Assembly: GCA_963844715.1 (NCBI GenBank)
Contig: CAWJPJ010000005.1
Location: forward strand, 1-64,000
Length of the DNA stretch: 64,000 nt
Direction of reading: 5' to 3'
Source: an uncultured Phycisphaerales bacterium
Lineage (GTDB): Bacteria; Planctomycetota; Phycisphaerae; Tepidisphaerales; Tepidisphaeraceae
Shown: one piece after another, positions 1 through 22,805 of the stretch
Layout: every line of letters begins with the position of its first letter
Position numbering within the stretch: position 1 is the first letter of the stretch
Notes under the pieces: model-generated
Seen by the model: the letters and a program-made list of their open reading frames with translations, nothing else
Database searches by the model: none
Told to the model about the DNA's origin: nothing
Position numbers and translations under genes: made by a program

Positions 1-487
1 GGTCCCGGGCGTGAAACTTGAATCCAGGTCGGTTGCCTGCTTTTCGATTCCCTCGACCAATTGCTCGGCCTGATCCGTGAGGTTCTTTTGCAGGCCTTGG
101 AGCATGTCGAGTTCTTTCAGATCGTCGGGCGTGTTGACGCGGTCGTTGATCCGATAGGGAACGCCGTAGAAGGTGAAAGGCAGGTAATCCGGCCCTGAAA
201 GCCATGGCCGATGATGAACTGCCTGATGGGGGCGATCACGCCGGTTTCGTAGGTGTTAAAGGGCATCTCCTCGGCGTCAGGGAGATCGAGCGGGCAGATG
301 TGATCCGCCGGCACTCCGCGGAGCTGGCATAGAGATTCGCCAGCTTCTGGCTGTCCGGGACGTTCTTGTTGGTAATCAGGAGAATTTGATCCGGTTCCAG
401 AGCCAGCAGGGGGGGTGCAAAAACAGTCAGGCAAAGGAGAAACGCCAGCAGCGACCACTTGGGCTGGAAGGGGGATTTGGGGCTCAC
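1..487 (-). CDS. TIGR03790-like exported protein, N-terminal part (runs off the window; frameshifted)
   Basis: Signal peptide ...LLALEPDQILLITNKNVPDSQKLA joins ..QLRGVPADHICPLDLP across two ORFs; GTG start at 487 preceded by TACCAT. Confidence 0.6.
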
Positions 488-579
488 CCTCGTATGGTAG
501 GCGGCTGGCCGCGGATTGGAAACAGGGGGACCCTTGCGGGGGTTAGCGGGAGGAGTAAAATCCCGGTGGCGGCGGATGG

Positions 580-2050
580 ATGGGGAGATCGGATCCATCG
601 GCGATGTTCGACAAATATGAGGTCAACGGCCTGTTCGACGAGATGTTCGTCACGTCGGACCAACCTCGGGCACATTACGCCCCGCTGGTCAGCCGCCTGA
701 AGGCCTCGGGGCACCCCGCATTCGAGCGCCGGCGGCGGATGACGGACGTTCTGTTTCGCAACCAGGGGATCACCTTTACCGTTTACAGCGACGCACGCGG
801 GGTGGAGAAGATTTTCCCTTTCGATCTGGTTCCCCGGATCGTTCCCGCCGGCGAATGGGAGACAATCGAGCGGGGGCTTATTCAGCGCATCACGGCTCTT
901 AATCTTTTCTGCCAGGACATTTATCACGGGCAGCGAATCCTCAAGGAAAAGATCATTCCCGCCGGAACTGATCTATGGGGCGAAGATGTTCCGGCGGGAA
1001 ATGTTCGGCGTGAACGTGCCGCGGGACATCTATATCCACATCTGCGGCACCGACCTCATCCGCGACAAGGATGGAAAATATTACGTGCTGGAAGATAACG
1101 GCCGAACGCCCAGCGGCGTGAGCTACGTGCTGGAAAACCGCAGCGTCATGAAGCGGGTTTTCCCGAGCCTGTTTAGCGAGTATCGCGTTAGAGCCATCGA
1201 GGATTATCCATATAACCTGCTTCAGTGCCTGCGGCACATCGCGCCGCATCACGCCGACGAGCCGGGCATCGCGATCCTGACGCCGGGCATCTACAACTCG
1301 GCTTACTTCGAGCATAGCTTCCTGGCCCGGCAAATGGGCATCGAACTCGTCGAGGGGCGCGACCTGCTCGTCGATAAGGGGTTTTTGTACATGCGGACGA
1401 CGGCCGGTTTGCGGCGCGTGGACGTGCTCTATCGCCGCGTGGATGACGACTTCCTCGATCCACTCTGTTTCCGGCCGGATAGCGTGCTGGGCGTGCCGGG
1501 GCTGATGAACGGCCTATCGTTGCGGGAATCTTGCCCTGGCGAATGCCGTGGGCACCGGGGTCGCCGACGATAAGGCGATTTATCCGTTCGTGCCGGACAT
1601 GATCAAGTTCTACCTCAGCCAGGAGGCGATACTTCCCAACGTGCCGACTTTCATCTGCGCGCGGGACGACGATCGAAAATATGTGCTGGAACATTTGCAC
1701 GAGTTGGTCGTCAAGAGCACCAACGAATCCGGCGGGTACGGCATGCTCATGGGCCATCAGGCGGACAAAGCAGAACGCGAAAAGTTCGCCGGCCAAGATC
1801 GCGGAAGATCCGCGGAACTTCATCGCCGCAGCCGGTGGTGGAGCTCAGTCAGCATCCCAGCCTGGTGGAGGATCATTTCGAGGGGCGGCGCGTGGACCTG
1901 CGGCCTTACATCGTTTATGGGCAAAAGGTGATCGTCATGCCCGGCGGGCTGACGCGCGTTGCGCTGCGGGAGGGAAGCCTGGTGGTGAATTCCAGCCAGG
2001 GGGGCGGCAGCAAGGATACCTGGGTGCTGGAAGAGGAGCCGATCGGATAA
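580..2050 (+). CDS. Circularly permuted type 2 ATP-grasp protein (several indels)
   Basis: Motifs [74 protein letters not shown] across ORFs 580-1098, 986-1573, 1548-1931, 1835-2050. Confidence 0.9.
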
Positions 2051-2140
2051 TCGCCCATGACCAGCCCGCACACAGGCACATCTTCGTCGTTTGCCACGAT
2101 CGGTTTCAGCGGCGACTCAACCCTGCGCGGGGCTGCGCCG

Positions 2141-3093
2141 ATGTTCGCGCGCGACGCCGATTCCATGTACTGGATGGCTCGATACGTCGAGCGGGCGGAA
2201 CACGTGGCGCGGCTGCTACTGGTCACTTCCACCGTGCTCATCGATATGGGCGAACTCGCCCCGGTGCTAATCGCCCGGCAATGGCAAAGCATTTTGACGA
2301 TTCTGCACCTGCCGGAAATTACCGAGGGGAACGGGAATCTGTCCGTTCGGGTGGCGCAATATCTCACGCTGGATCAGGATAATCCGAATAGCATGATCAG
2401 TTGCATCTCGCGGGCGCGGGAAAACGCGCGGGGAATCCGCGAAAATATCTCGGCCGAGATGTGGGAGAATTTGAACGCTCTCTACTGGTCGCTGCGCAGC
2501 GACGATGCCACGGCTCGATTTGAGGATTCGCCGGACAGCCTCTGGCGGTCGGTCATGACCGGGTCGATGCTTTTTCAGGGGTTGACCGATCAGACCCTGG
2601 CGCACGATCAGCGATGGCTGTTTGCGCAACTGGCCAAATATCTCGAGCGCATCGACGTCACCTGCCGGGTCATCGAGACTAAATTCAATTTCCTCAAATC
2701 CGCCGAGCAATTTCTGGAAAGCACGCTGCGCAATATCAACTGGATGGCGGTGCTGCGGAGTTGCTGCTCGATCGAGGCGTATCGGCGGTATTACCTCGGC
2801 GACATGGATCCGTTCCGCGTGGCGTCGTTTCTGATCCTGGAAAAGAATTTCCCGCGAAGCGTGAGATTTTGCGTGAGCGGGGGCGCTGGCGGCAATGGCG
2901 GCGATCCGCGGCAGCACGCGGCGGGGCGGCGATCGACCCGGCGGAGCGCATTCTGGGCCGTCTCGACGCCCATCTTGAATATGTGCAGATCGCGGACATC
3001 GTCGCCGACGGGTTACCCAATTTTCTCCAGCATATCCAAACCGCCATCAACGACGCGGCGCTGGCGGTTCAACAGTCTTATTTCCTGCAATGA
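2141..3093 (+). CDS. Alpha-E domain protein (DUF403), one indel near 2880
   Basis: MFARDADSMYWMARYVERAEHVAR, ARENARGIRE, second ER motif YLERID, FPRSV. Confidence 0.9.
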
Positions 3094-3097
3094 CACC

Positions 3098-4055
3098 ATG
3101 CTTTTAAAAATCACCCACCAGACCGATTTGATTTACTCCGACATGATCAGCGAATCGATCATGGAACTGCGCATGGTCCCCCGGCAGGAGCAGGACCAGC
3201 ACCGGCTCTCGTTCGATCTGGCGATTGGGCCCCCGACCAGCGTGAGCAGCTACTTCGATTGGCTGGGGAACACGGTACACACGTTTTCCGTGAACGGATT
3301 TCATAAGGAGATCCGGATTTTGGCGACGAGCGTGGTGGAAACGGATCGGCCGCGTAAGGAGCCGGAGCGGTTTCGCGATCGCTGGCCGATACCAAGCGAT
3401 TCGCTCGACTATTCGCTTTACGACTATCTGCAATTTGGCGGCCCGGTCGTGGATAGCCAGGAACTGCGCGAATTGGCGAAAATTCTGGGCGCCGCGGAGG
3501 GGATGCCGCTGGGGGAATTGGCGCTGCGCGTGCTGCATTTGATCGACGATAAATTCACGTACAAGAAGGGGATTACCAACGCCGCCAGTCCGATCACGGA
3601 GATGCTCAAGACCGGGTTCGGGGTTTGCCAGGATTTCACGCACCTGATGATCGGTTTGGCCCGGGAACTGAAAATTCCGGCCCGATACGTCAGCGGCCTG
3701 ATTCATCCGGGAGGCCAAAAGCTTGCGCGGAAACACGCAGACCCACGCCTGGTGCGAACTTTTCTTCCCGTCGGCGGGTTGGATCGGATTCGATCCGGCG
3801 AACCGATGTCTGGTCGGTGGGAATTTTGTGAAGGTTGCCTGCGGGCGCGATTTCCGGGACGTGCCGCCGAATCGCGGGGTTTATCGCGGGAACGCGGCGG
3901 AAATGATCGACGTTGCGGTCCGGAGCGATGAACTGTCGAATATTCCGTCGGAACTGGCGGCGGAGCGATTGCAGTCGCTGGACGTGCCGACCTATCCGCC
4001 GGGCTATACCGGACATCGCGAGGCGGCGAATCAGCAGGAACATCAGCAGCAGTAA
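3098..4055 (+). CDS. Transglutaminase-like protein (Bact_transglu_N plus core), indel near 3725
   Basis: Catalytic GVCQDF (Cys), THAWCE (His), FDPAN (Asp), GRDFRDVPPNRG; ends NQQEHQQQ. Confidence 0.9.
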
Positions 4056-17503: not shown

Positions 17504-17529
17504 TGATCTTCGGTAGTGGGTCAGTTTGA
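17504..17529 (+). repeat. Left TSD plus terminal inverted repeat
   Basis: TGATCTTC|GGTAGTGGGTCAGTTTGA. Confidence 0.95.
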
Positions 17530-17530
17530 T

Positions 17531-18355
17531 TTATTTACCTAAAAGTGCAACCAATTCTTCCAACTCCCAAACGTGGTCGGTCAGACCGGCTTGCATCGCT
17601 GGCGTGACGCGGAGCGTCTGGTGAATCCGGCAGTAGTTGTAGTGCATGAAGTGAAGCGCGACCATCGCGGCGTGGTTCTCGGCCTTCTTTGAAAAGGCAT
17701 TGGTCAGCCGCGTAAACCGCCGCATCGACATCCGCATGGTCAAATTCTGCCGTTCAACGTGGCTGGTCGAAACGTGGCTGATATCCGGCGATCCGCAGAC
17801 TTCTTCGGACTTCACACCGATGATGTTGGCTGGGCTGTATCGGGCTTCGCCGGGCCGCTCAGCGCCGTAGATCTTCACAAGCTGGGCATAATCAACGTCG
17901 CCACCGAAGGCATCGTCAACCGCGTCCAGATAGACCCGAAGGCCATCGGTCGTCAATTGCACCTTGCGGGCGAGTCGGCTGGCAACGTCTCGCATGAACT
18001 CATGGGCGTATCCGCCATCACGCAATCCGACCATGTAGCTGACGATGAGTTTTGAATCGGAGTCGAGCGCCGTCCAGGTCCAGATATCGCCGTACCCCAT
18101 GCCCTTCTTATCTGCTGGGACGTTCTTTTGCTTGGCGTAGCAGAACGCCCAAATCTCATCGCACTGAACGCGCTTGGTCAGCAAGTGGCAAACGTGCTCA
18201 TCGTGGTAGGCCTTGCAGGCTTCACCGATATCGACCAGCAGCTTGATGACCGTGTTCTTGGCAACGCCGGTCATGCGGACGGTGGAACGGATCGAGCAAC
18301 CCTCCACCAGAGCGGAAATCACGCGAACCCGGTCAGCAGTGCTTAGCTTATTCAT
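17531..18355 (-). CDS. IS1-family DDE transposase (274 aa)
   Basis: N-terminal HTH (LVEGCSIRSTVRMTGVAKNTV), QCDEIW, QLTTDG, STSHVERQNLTMR, RFTRLTNAFSKK, TPAMQAGL. Confidence 0.93.
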   Translation of the reverse strand: MNKLSTADRVRVISALVEGCSIRSTVRMTGVAKNTVIKLLVDIGEACKAYHDEHVCHLLTKRVQCDEIWAFCYAKQKNVPADKKGMGYGDIWTWTALDSDSKLIVSYMVGLRDGGYAHEFMRDVASRLARKVQLTTDGLRVYLDAVDDAFGGDVDYAQLVKIYGAERPGEARYSPANIIGVKSEEVCGSPDISHVSTSHVERQNLTMRMSMRRFTRLTNAFSKKAENHAAMVALHFMHYNYCRIHQTLRVTPAMQAGLTDHVWELEELVALLGK

Positions 18356-18362
18356 ACTGACC

Positions 18363-18452
18363 TTTATACTTGAACGCACATGCAATGTCAAGTCAAATGT
18401 ATGCCTGTAGCTTACAGGCATACATTGACATTGCAAGAGACGTTGGTATACT
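18363..18452. promoter_or_regulatory. Divergent sigma70 promoters around a palindromic operator
   Basis: Minus strand TTGACA-17-TATAAA then 7 nt to the transposase ATG; plus strand TTGACA(18425)-16-TATACT(18447) with extended TG; perfect 14-bp IR at 18396-18409/18413-18426. Confidence 0.8.
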
Positions 18453-18460
18453 GGATGCAG

Positions 18461-19588
18461 ATGAATCAGCCTACCGACCACAATCCACAGCTCCCAGGTG
18501 AACGGATTCGCCAACTGCTTATCGAAAGGGGCTGGACCCAAGATGATCTCGCTCAGATTCTCGACAGACCGCGCCCAACCGTCGTCAACATCATCAACGG
18601 GAAAAAGTCGATCACGCCGGAAACGGCGATTGCGCTTGCTGCCGCATTTGGCACGACCGCTGACTACTGGATGGGATTGGAGACTCAGTATCGTCTCGCG
18701 CTGGCCGCGACCGATTCCTCAGGAGTAGAACATCGTCGTCACCTTTATGACGTTGCTCCTATCAAAGAAATGGAGCGGCGCGGCTGGATCAAACCGACAA
18801 ACAGCGCCGAGGAATTGGAGCGAGAGTTATGTCAATTCTTCGGTGTCGAATCACTGGAACACGAACCACAAATCACTGTCGCAACCAAACGTCCCTCCTC
18901 AAATGAACCCCTCACGGCTGCGCAGCGCGCATGGTGCTTCAGAGCACGCCAATTGGCGCGAATTGTCTACGCAGAGAAATTCAATCCAGACCTGTTACCC
19001 CATTGCGAAAAGAGACTGCGAGAACTCGCCGCCTTTCCAGATGAAGCAAGAAACGTCCCAAAAGTTCTGGCCGGATATGGGATTCGGTTCGTCGTCATCG
19101 AGCCCCTTGCGAGCAACCGAATCGACGGCGCGGCATTCTGGCTGTCTGCTGATGAACCAGTCATTGCGCTATCCGTCCGATTCGATCGCATCGACGCGTT
19201 TTGGTTTGCCTTGGGCCATGAATTTGCACACATAAAAAACGGCGATGCCTCTGTTGACGCGGAGCTTGTCGGCGAAAGTGCCACGCCGAGCGAAGGGAAA
19301 ACAGATATTGAGCGGCGCGCCGATGAGCAAGCGTCCAATATGCTCATACCGGCCGACAAGTTGCAATCATTTGTCCTGCGCGTCGGTCCGCTTTATTCAA
19401 AATCGAGAATCAACCAATTTGCGAATATAATGAAGATCCATCCTGGAATTGTGGTTGGACAGTTGCAGCATCGCGGCGAAGTTGCATGGACCGCAAACCG
19501 CGAAATGCTCGCAAGGGTCCGCTCTCTCGTTACCAGTACGGCCCTCACAGATGGATGGGGCCGAACATTCACGCCGGGCGCGGTTTAG
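18461..19588 (+). CDS. XRE/HigA-type HTH fused to an ImmA/IrrE (M78) metallopeptidase
   Basis: PGERIRQLLIERGWTQDDLA..IINGKKSITPETAIALAAAFG; IDGAAFW; HEXXH in GHEFAH; ERRAD; IHPGIVVGQL. Confidence 0.9.
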   Translation: MNQPTDHNPQLPGERIRQLLIERGWTQDDLAQILDRPRPTVVNIINGKKSITPETAIALAAAFGTTADYWMGLETQYRLALAATDSSGVEHRRHLYDVAPIKEMERRGWIKPTNSAEELERELCQFFGVESLEHEPQITVATKRPSSNEPLTAAQRAWCFRARQLARIVYAEKFNPDLLPHCEKRLRELAAFPDEARNVPKVLAGYGIRFVVIEPLASNRIDGAAFWLSADEPVIALSVRFDRIDAFWFALGHEFAHIKNGDASVDAELVGESATPSEGKTDIERRADEQASNMLIPADKLQSFVLRVGPLYSKSRINQFANIMKIHPGIVVGQLQHRGEVAWTANREMLARVRSLVTSTALTDGWGRTFTPGAV

Positions 19589-19600
19589 AAAGGACAACAC

Positions 19601-20140
19601 ATGCCTACGCAAAACCAAACAGCCACTGAGTTCAAACAGGATATCATCAACGATTACCTTCTGGCTCATCCCCAACAACAAGATTGGACGATGGAAGATG
19701 TCGCCAGTTGGGCGATCCACAATGGCCGAATGACACTCACGCTTCACAGTGCGATAAAACTTTGCGCTAGGGAATTGGCTGATGCAGCAAGGGTTGAATA
19801 TCACACTGATGAGCACGGGCGACGAGTTCGCTCAAAATACCCGCGACGCGAAACCATCATGGTGGATGGCAAGCCTCGACAGATGGTCTTTTGGGAGGAC
19901 TATCAAAATCTTCTGCCTAGCCACATGCACGTTCATTTACAGCAGCGACGACAAGGGATAGTTGCCGACTGCGCTCAACTGAAACGCGATGGCGACTCAT
20001 ACAACGACAACAATCCCCATGGCGCTCATATCCAACAGGAATTCGACTTTACGCAGGATTTAGCGGAACTCGAAGCATCGGATCAATATCCATCGGGACC
20101 GGACCAATCCGATGCGGAGGATGACGATCAGGAAGAATGA
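19601..20140 (+). CDS. Uncharacterised IS passenger protein (179 aa)
   Basis: AAAGGA RBS, start 12 nt after the XRE stop, intact ORF, acidic C-terminal tail. Confidence 0.8.
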   Translation: MPTQNQTATEFKQDIINDYLLAHPQQQDWTMEDVASWAIHNGRMTLTLHSAIKLCARELADAARVEYHTDEHGRRVRSKYPRRETIMVDGKPRQMVFWEDYQNLLPSHMHVHLQQRRQGIVADCAQLKRDGDSYNDNNPHGAHIQQEFDFTQDLAELEASDQYPSGPDQSDAEDDDQEE

Positions 20141-20367
20141 CTCCACCGCTTTGCCGCCGCCTTTTTGGCGATAGCCTTGCGTCGGGCCGGCGATAGCGCC
20201 TTCGCCCGCGCCTTGCCGCCCTTTGGCCCCCCCAGCTTCCCCATCGCCACTGCCGCCGGATTCTTCGCCGGGCCGGTAGGCTCGGCCGGTGCATTCCCCG
20301 TGGCCATATCGACTATCATCTTGGCAAGCTGGTTAGGATCGCGGGGCATTCTTGATCGTTTAAGCAT
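20128..20367 (-). CDS. Small basic K/A-rich protein next to the IS end
   Basis: PRDPNQLAKMIVDMATG..KNPAAVAMGKLGGPKGGKARAKALSPARRKAIAKKAAAKRW. Confidence 0.8.
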   Translation of the reverse strand: MLKRSRMPRDPNQLAKMIVDMATGNAPAEPTGPAKNPAAVAMGKLGGPKGGKARAKALSPARRKAIAKKAAAKRWSHSS

Positions 20368-20414
20368 GGCCCCATGATCGCGTGAATCTGGGAAGGGTTC
20401 AAGAACCAAATATT

Positions 20415-20440
20415 TCAAACTGACCCACTACCTGATCTTC
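20415..20440 (+). repeat. Right terminal inverted repeat plus TSD
   Basis: TCAAACTGACCCACTACC|TGATCTTC. Confidence 0.95.
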
Positions 20441-20566: not shown

Positions 20567-22614
<2,048 letters not shown>

Positions 22615-22805
22615 AACCATCCTTAACATCGAGGGTTCCGCCCGCCGGTTTCACCCGCCGCAGGGAACCGAACACCCCATCATACGGAGTTGGAGGCAGT
22701 TATTTCCAGCCTTATTAAATTCATATCGCCCGTTCGATAGACAAACTTTTACATTACGGGGCCTTCGCAGGCTATAGGGCGTTGTTCGGGGACTATCGTA
22801 AGGGG

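Follow-up and report, generated by a model that had tools for sequence, protein, structure and literature searches.

Can the passenger genes of an insertion sequence (IS) control the mobility of the element that carries them? A concrete and cheap test case is found in an uncultured Phycisphaerales bacterium of the phylum Planctomycetota, in the first 64,000 nucleotides (nt) of contig CAWJPJ010000005.1 (assembly GCA_963844715.1), the stretch of DNA that was analyzed in its full length and that is called the window here. It contains an intact, cargo-carrying IS of 2921 base pairs (bp; window positions 17512-20432), present in a single copy in the 4.55-Mb genome. Inside this IS, the gene for the transposase and the gene for a passenger protein diverge from a spacer of 105 nt that holds no open reading frame (ORF). 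The passenger protein joins a helix-turn-helix (HTH) of the XRE/HigA type to a peptidase of the M78 (ImmA/IrrE) type, and is called XRE-M78 below. The spacer holds a long palindrome, and from one start codon to the other the whole candidate control region measures 111 bp.

A preliminary description of this DNA took the arrangement for a prophage-like switch, in which the passenger protein binds the palindrome and makes both transposition and the expression of the cargo inducible by stress. The reading preferred here is narrower. The palindrome is predicted to be bound by XRE-M78 as the autoregulatory operator of that protein's own gene, a reading to which a probability of roughly 0.6 may be assigned. 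Whether the transposase responds as well is a separate matter, and is weighed separately.

The spacer and its two promoters

The palindrome (18396-18426), recognized in an inverted-repeat search and by comparison with relatives, is a perfect inverted repeat of 14 nt, in which the arms AATGTATGCCTGTA (18396-18409) and TACAGGCATACATT (18413-18426) flank a gct loop. It contains a set of four triplets, GTA-N5-GTA-N3-TAC-N5-TAC. This triplet pattern occurs at a single site in the 4.55-Mb genome. A search with the entire 31-mer, allowing up to three mismatches, returned no second copy in the window, no match in any of 100 dinucleotide shuffles, and none in 400 other genomes of the phylum. Nor does the IS contain a further half-site at up to three mismatches. 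Thus, the locus has one dyad and no second operator.

To call this a prophage-like switch is therefore to overstate the case, as only a single dyad and a single evident regulator are present. The cargo contains no second HTH gene; the HTH and the peptidase are parts of one polypeptide of 375 amino acids (aa). A bistable switch of the phage CI/Cro type has two antagonistic regulators, with several operators between divergent promoters; here, the gene that diverges from the regulator encodes a transposase and not a second repressor.

Two promoters surround the palindrome. On the minus strand, the transposase promoter (18353-18392) reads TTGACA (the complement of 18386-18391), 17 nt, TATAAA (the complement of 18363-18368), 7 nt and ATG (the complement of 18353-18355). 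It went unlisted in a promoter scan because that scan accepts only -10 boxes whose sixth base is T. On the plus strand, the cargo promoter (18425-18460) reads TTGACA (18425-18430), 16 nt, a -10 box TATACT (18447-18452) extended by a preceding TG, 8 nt, and the ATG at 18461; the scan found 11 of 12 consensus matches. Its -35 box shares 2 nt with the palindrome. No purine-rich Shine-Dalgarno (SD) sequence precedes either start codon, and both transcripts are probably leaderless. Every sequence element of the preliminary description, from the palindrome to the promoter spacings and the absence of SD sequences, was found as claimed when the DNA was read again. The spacings are not assembly indels, since contigs built from short reads of public soil runs cover 18204-18574 with zero differences. 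Because transcription is predicted to start downstream of the dyad on both sides, the dyad should act at the level of DNA.

The preliminary description also gave the palindrome outer arms. These, TGCAATGTCAA (18381-18391) and TTGACATTGCA (18425-18435), are indeed exact reverse complements of each other. They are not, however, centered on the core, from which the left arm is set off by 4 extra nt and which the right arm overlaps by 2 nt, and their symmetry does not persist in the five-sequence alignment of relatives presented below. As read from these sequences, the outer symmetry is mostly that of two -35 boxes, one belonging to the carrier and one to the cargo.

A different origin for that symmetry was considered, in which the transposase promoter was duplicated in inverted orientation to give the cargo promoter. 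The 39-nt arms of the two promoters do align better than shuffled sequences with the hexamers preserved, of which only 4 in 2000 reach the score. Against this, the cargo-side promoter is shared with a relative that lies outside any recognizable IS (L092), the symmetry of the arms is not kept in three other relatives (L103, L104 and L093), and no inverted second copy turned up in other loci when these were scanned with a matrix of the family promoter at fixed spacing. Inverted duplication was rejected as a general feature.

To whom the palindrome belongs

If the palindrome were part of the machinery of transposition, it should follow the transposase; if it were part of the cargo, it should follow the cargo. 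Relatives of both allow these to be told apart. A scan in which each species was represented by one genome gave 501 transposase relatives. The best 80 of these (L004-L083) were kept; they come from many phyla and are 60-89% identical to the transposase of the window. Further loci were gathered around relatives of XRE-M78 and around matches to the palindrome itself, for 115 loci in the comparison.

The closest relative of the transposase (L004) carries different cargo. Its transposase is 89% identical in aa, and its counterpart of ORF4, a small gene at the far end of the IS, is 86% identical. Nevertheless, its DNA resembles that of the window only in 17544-18392 and 20137-20432. The left block of similarity ends one base past the -35 box of the transposase promoter, which places the junction between backbone and cargo at 18392/18393. 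Between the two blocks, L004 has neither the dyad nor the XRE cassette; other cargo is found there, together with other repeats (GAAATTATTCCC). These limits define a cassette in the window of approximately 18393-20136, in which the dyad and the cargo promoter are both included.

The converse case is the closest relative found for XRE-M78 (L092), in which that protein is 69% identical and the protein encoded downstream of it, ORF3, 63%. This locus of 4.1 kb, in which about 1.5 kb precede the start of XRE-M78, contains no match to the transposase or to ORF4. It does contain a perfect 14-3-14 palindrome, AATATAGGCTTATA-acc-TATAAGCCTATATT, whose last TT opens a -35 box, TTGACT; a spacer of 16 nt separates this box from TATGAT, and 8 nt separate TATGAT from the ATG. 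The geometry and register are those of the window; the sequence is different. All four triplets are ATA/TAT instead of GTA/TAC, a concerted change that makes this locus a natural variant in specificity.

Three further relatives of XRE-M78 have the pattern GTA-N5-GTA-N3-TAC-N5-TAC directly upstream of that gene, with N5 spacers that vary. One of these (L103, in genome G607, positions 480-3460) is a sibling element, with a transposase 82%, an ORF4 90% and an XRE protein 65% identical to those of the window, and with the same layout of the cargo promoter. It lacks the inverted repeat near the transposase, its ORF3 is frameshifted and its dyad pairs at 11 of 14 positions, as in a decaying copy. 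The second (L104) is an intact IS with perfect inverted repeats of 18 nt and an XRE protein 50% identical; in the third (L113), the XRE protein is 48% identical.

When the five dyads were aligned (alignment A2), 81.2% of the cells were paired, against 20-46% when the partner arm was slid. Both sides had changed in 6 of the 14 dyad pairs, and the covariation score was reached by none of 500 shuffles. Coming from five related sequences, the covariation is supportive rather than conclusive.

Among the 115 loci, the triplet pattern is found only in these three relatives of XRE-M78, in five loci that are the window DNA itself, and in L087, which had been retrieved by the palindrome core pattern; it occurs in none of the 80 transposase loci. 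By these comparisons of sequence, the palindrome is a component of the cargo, and not of the transposon backbone. The preliminary description had suggested asking whether the palindrome varies together with XRE cargo. It does: it travels with the XRE gene, and it is absent where the nearest transposase carries something else.

The transposase promoter has the opposite distribution. Within the 60 nt before the transposase start, 51 of 81 loci fit a model of a -35 box, 16-18 nt, a -10 box, 5-9 nt and a start codon. Among these 51, TTGAC is present in 44, a 17-nt spacer in 46, and exactly 7 nt between the -10 box and the ATG in 35; the family consensus is cTTGACaATgCtTgAcCGCTCAAGCATAATGGTCAGTATG. 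This promoter accompanies every type of cargo, including cargo without a DNA-binding domain. That it is retained irrespective of the cargo speaks for a genuine promoter of the transposase gene, in most cases a leaderless one, and the comparison supports regarding it as a backbone element conserved across phyla. Both of the promoters proposed earlier look real.

Some loci depart from the leaderless form. In five of them (L054, L058, L065, L075 and L082), the family promoter is followed by an inserted leader of 12-25 nt before the ATG, and in all but L082 that leader contains an SD-like motif resembling GGAGG or AAGGGG. A GCTTGA...TCAAGC dyad in the spacer of the transposase promoter is strict in only 15 of the 80 loci, and is degenerate in the window.

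What the palindrome may do

Why propose that the palindrome is the operator of XRE-M78? HigA proteins repress their own operons by binding to their promoters (PMC6987408). The N-terminal domain of XRE-M78 passes the HigA model, and the dyad stands at the promoter of its own gene. Further, the region of the recognition helix differs where the operator differs, reading RPRPTVVNIING in the window and RPLPTINEIIGG in L092, whose triplets are altered. These considerations, together with the expectation that the dyad acts as DNA and with the distribution of the dyad among the relatives, are the grounds for the assignment. Most likely as a dimer or as a higher oligomer such as a tetramer, the HTH would contact the four GTA/TAC triplets. 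Bound there, and overlapping the -35 box of its own promoter, XRE-M78 would repress its own transcription, much as HigA antitoxins do. The mobile module, approximately 18393-20136, would then comprise the operator, the promoter, the XRE-M78 gene and ORF3, placed in the cargo slot of the carrier. Since that slot opens one base past the -35 box of the transposase promoter, XRE-M78 on its operator would also lie over approximately -41 to -71 of that promoter, whose activity it might alter. The locus differs from higBA in having no HigB, either in the window or in its closest relatives, in the fusion of the HTH to a peptidase, and in a four-triplet operator that lies upstream of the -35 box and runs into it, at which binding is predicted.

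Several observations weigh against this reading. The dyad enters the -35 box by only 2 nt and does not cover the -10 box or the start, a position that fits activators too. The spacing of triplets within an arm is 8 bp, which is not a helical repeat. The dyads of L103 and L104 are imperfect (11 of 14 pairs in each), the covariation rests on only five sequences, all of them related, and more distant relatives without HigB (L012, L014, L072, L093 and L110) have other, often weaker, dyads. In addition, ORF3 tracks the dyad as faithfully as XRE-M78 does, and co-occurrence therefore cannot separate the two. Last, in the anti-phage system PD-Lambda-2, whose component B is the best model match of XRE-M78, component B alone is described as toxic and as rescued by the HigB-like component A (PMC9519451).

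The leading alternative is the one with which the preliminary description began. In it, XRE-M78 bound at the dyad represses both promoters, and an M78 peptidase activated by stress or by phage removes or inactivates the HTH, so that cargo and transposition are induced together. The dyad ends only 4 nt from the -35 box of the transposase promoter, and four IS-borne relatives, with transposases only 60-82% identical, have the same linker and a spacer of 104-105 nt. The HExxH residues of the peptidase are invariant in 15 relatives, as the model would want. Other types of cargo, too, place repeats of their own against the transposase -35 box (TGCTTGC/GCAAGCA in loci that carry P63C, GAAATTATTCCC in L004). 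With this, and with the linker and spacer preserved, cross-talk between the operator and the transposase promoter is plausible.

There is also precedent, in that the resolvase of Tn3 acts at res to control divergent transposon genes (PMC7157771). As that article presents them, the Tn3 genes likewise diverge from promoters in one short intergenic region, with an element-encoded DNA-binding protein acting in between, and the toxin-antitoxin modules that lie beside res in transposons of the Tn3 family are proposed to have a regulatory role, as passengers integrated with the genes for transposition (Lima-Mendez et al., 2020; PMC7157771). There, however, the regulator is a backbone resolvase whose dual repression is experimental (PMC7157771); here, the candidate regulator is cargo, there is no resolvase, and dual control would have to be deduced from the layout.

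On the other side, the transposase promoter is autonomous, is found throughout the family, and is present with every type of cargo, even cargo that has no DNA-binding domain. The juxtaposition of dyad and transposase promoter may simply follow from the position of the cargo slot. A site at approximately -41 to -71 fits repression and activation equally. Moreover, in PD-Lambda-2, the one relative that has been studied, the peptidase fusion acts as a toxic component and is not described as a repressor cleaved under stress (PMC9519451). Double repression relieved by the peptidase is accordingly regarded as doubtful. A broader version, in which the operator of each cassette gates the transposase, and in which a PD-Lambda-2-like cassette would answer phage or stress through its M78 peptidase by launching both defense and transposition, "jumping when attacked," is a rather speculative idea and improbable as a whole. 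Were such gating real, mobility would be conditional on the state of the cargo regulator. Were the coupling not real, the locus would hold an ordinary autoregulated antitoxin-like gene that happens to occupy the cargo slot.

A different protein might of course be the one that binds. ORF3, alone or together with XRE-M78, could recognize the dyad in place of the HTH alone; it follows XRE-M78 in every relative that bears the dyad, including L092 away from any IS. Its predicted structure has three N-terminal helices, a beta-hairpin and a long helix, and the top Foldseek rows include winged-helix regulators of the PadR type, but only at E-values of 0.4-0.7. Since ORF3 matches no DNA-binding family and no fold significantly (best Foldseek E 0.21; best VIA-align Z 4.5), ends in an acidic tail, and is frameshifted in L103, its role as the binding protein is unlikely. 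Alternatively, the protein that recognizes the dyad could be the transposase, ORF4 or a host factor, which would make the dyad part of the machinery of transposition. The dyad does lie inside the IS and adjoin the transposase promoter; the transposase has an HTH-like N-terminal region, and ORF4 is conserved and basic. This explanation is largely refuted by the perfect dyad of L092, where the 4.1-kb locus has no match to transposase or ORF4, by the missing dyad of L004 despite 89% and 86% identity in those two proteins, and by the absence of the triplet pattern from all of L004-L083; its single genomic site is also unlike a host-factor motif. It is now very improbable.

Least credible of all is a dyad without any protein partner, a palindrome that arose by chance or that serves as structure, as a cruciform or an insulator between two strong promoters. 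Palindromes like this one do arise elsewhere, as an exact 10-3-10 core is found in six unrelated metagenome contigs (L084-L089). But in the five relatives, the symmetry of the dyad has survived substitutions on both sides, in a constant register with the -35 box, and the four triplets persist where the N5 spacers differ.

The six contigs represent about three contexts, with flanks shared by L084 and L085 and by L086, L088 and L089, and with L087 alone. They contain no relative of the transposase, XRE-M78, ORF3 or ORF4, and no resemblance to the window beyond the palindrome, within contigs that in three of six cases end about 130 nt or less from the match, which leaves one neighbor unseen. They are treated as unrelated palindromes, and not as a refutation of the preferred reading. 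The core stands upstream of what appears to be the N-terminus of another transposase in L086, L088 and L089, and the L087 contig has ORFs that look eukaryotic.

The cargo, the carrier and its family

XRE-M78 (18461-19588, plus strand; 375 aa) was identified by Pfam, NCBIfam and PADLOC models. It scores 47 bits against HTH_3, 24 bits against Peptidase_M78 (PF06114; cut-off 22), and 57.5 bits against HigA (TIGR02607; cut-off 47.7) over residues 7-82. The PADLOC model of PD-Lambda-2_B (PDLC03982) matches over nearly the whole length, with residues 12-350 placed on model positions 60-387 of 402 at an E-value of 9.4e-42. The peptidase motif is HEFAH, in which H253, E254 and H257 are the residues invariant in 15 relatives. 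In an alignment of six relatives, the invariant M28 puts the start at the ATG of 18461.

The preliminary description had drawn an analogy to pairs such as ImmR/ImmA of ICEBs1 and DdrO/IrrE of Deinococcus. In those systems, the repressor and the peptidase are two separate proteins, and the repressor is the substrate. The analogy is apt in that an XRE-type HTH and an M78-type HExxH metallopeptidase are found together, whether as part of a mobile element or within a regulon for stress. It fails in that a single fused polypeptide is involved here, whose nearest described relative is component B of PD-Lambda-2.

PD-Lambda-2 is an anti-phage system of E. coli that consists of a HigB-like component A, a HigA-like Xre HTH-peptidase B, and a third component C, which is needed for defense (Vassallo et al., 2022; PMC9519451). 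The passages of that article consulted here describe no operator for it. A PD-Lambda-2-like order, with a HigB-like gene, an XRE-peptidase and a third gene, is seen in L046 and in the IS-borne L052. A HigB-like ORF (PF05015) precedes XRE-M78 in L046 and in 9 of 10 further loci tested (E at most 1e-3), L052 among them, and scores above the gathering threshold in 6 of those 9. The window element differs, having no HigB gene and thus no component A, as the spacer is without an ORF. HigB is likewise missing from L092, L103, L104, L093, L012, L014 and L072, and in all of these, as in the window, a promoter and a dyad stand directly before XRE-M78.

The partner of XRE-M78 is ORF3 (19601-20140, plus strand; 179 aa), recognized by its conserved position downstream rather than by any known family or fold. 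Homologs of it follow XRE-M78 in L012, L046, L052, L072, L092-L095, L103-L105 and L110-L114. Searches of Pfam, PADLOC, NCBIfam and PHROGs gave no match. Although ORF3 is third in order, PADLOC gave no match to component C of PD-Lambda-2 at an E-value of 0.01 or better, and the same holds for the ORF3 of L046. A profile of 10 sequences matched nothing in the PDB. The structural model of ORF3 has a pLDDT (predicted local distance difference test) score of 84; the VIA-align match to it covers the long helix only, and its Atlas neighbors are unnamed clusters of hypothetical proteins. By sequence and gene order, then, the cargo is a PD-Lambda-2B-like cassette without HigB, with its own promoter, riding on an IS1-type carrier. 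What appears to be new is that such a cassette, with its predicted four-triplet operator, is plugged against a conserved leaderless IS1-type promoter.

That the palindrome lies inside an IS, as was claimed, is borne out by the ends of the element. Terminal inverted repeats (IRs) of 25 nt, one beside the transposase stop (17512-17536, beginning GGTAGTGGGTCAGTTTGA) and one at the distal end (20408-20432), are 92% complementary, and the same 8 nt, TGATCTTC, flank them as a direct repeat on the left (17504-17511) and on the right (20433-20440). Such IRs with a short target-site duplication are typical of IS1-type elements. IS1 itself gives duplications of 8-9 bp and has ends of the form GGT..TG. 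The transposase (17531-18355, minus strand; 274 aa) scores 27.5 bits against DDE_Tnp_IS1 (PF03400), above the gathering score of 24.1, and 58 bits against the NCBIfam IS1 model NF033558, under the cut-off of 100. Its relatives on RefSeq plasmids (57-62% identity) are annotated as "IS1 family transposase." The two-frame insA/insB' layout of classical IS1 is not found, as the transposase is one ORF. By its sequence, this element appears to belong to a cargo-carrying IS1 subgroup with a single-ORF transposase and a conserved ORF4 of 79 aa. The literature consulted, which did not extend to ISfinder, held nothing specific on passenger regulation in the IS1 family, and no paper on "ISMhu11."

ORF4 (20128-20367, minus strand), the basic protein just inside the distal IR, is co-oriented with the transposase. 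In IS1, a small element-encoded DNA-binding protein, InsA, controls the transposase by repressing at the left IR, and by analogy ORF4 may play an InsA-like role in this group. The differences from IS1 are that the promoter here is internal rather than in the IR, that the transposase is a single ORF, and that the dyad is owned by the cargo.

Across the 80 transposase relatives, an ORF4-like ORF is found upstream of the transposase and co-oriented with it in 54. Simple criteria recognize ends of the GGTAGTGGGTCAGTTTGA type in 23 of the 80, of which 17 have a target duplication; these elements range from 2285 to 3288 bp. What lies between ORF4 and the transposase varies, and is mostly divergent. 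When the first divergent ORF was scanned in 60 loci, XRE-M78 was joined by P63C (6), Fic (2), STAND/AAA NTPases (2) and AbiEii-like ATPases (2), by RhuM, a methylase and a ClpP-like protease, and by YhaV-like and Gp49-like toxins; many matched no family. This distribution defines, at the level of sequence, a widespread carrier. Its backbone consists of the transposase gene and promoter, ORF4 and two IRs, and its cargo is a swappable cassette. A relative of a defense or toxin-antitoxin system, PD-Lambda-2, rides on IS1-type carriers in several phyla, and exists also in a form without HigB and with its own, probably leaderless, promoter.

Other cassettes have features of their own. In all six loci whose cargo is P63C (L022, L038, L042, L060, L068 and L076), two to four copies of TGCTTGC/GCAAGCA lie within 160 nt upstream of the transposase; the other 74 loci have zero to two copies, and 66 of these have none. 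These repeats look like a cargo-specific operator set that abuts the transposase promoter. Separately, a motif from the C-terminus of ORF4 finds short matches at the N-termini of cargo proteins encoded on the opposite strand (P63C, RhuM, and one unclassified protein, in L067), in L022, L031, L038, L042, L060, L067 and L068.

A plasmid of Acidiphilium multivorum (NZ_CP041717.1; L109) carries an "IS1 family transposase" at 62% identity, preceded by hypothetical genes (two small, two divergent), in a region that adjoins a RES/Xre toxin-antitoxin pair of the MbcA/ParS type. Beside the IS in the window, an ftsH gene (20567-22629, minus strand) reads in three frames, with its N-terminal part in 21715-22629, a Walker-A segment in an ORF at 21723-22157, and its C-terminal part in 20567-21637. 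Two frameshifts are implied, which reflect either a pseudogene or indel errors in assembly.

Finally, contigs from two of the soil runs (X2 and X4) match the window from 20143 onward and differ before it, at the junction between cargo and ORF4. A contig of X4 extends to the end of the IS at 20432 and then enters a different flank. These observations, each from a single contig of low depth, hint at another insertion site, and at other cassettes in the same habitat.

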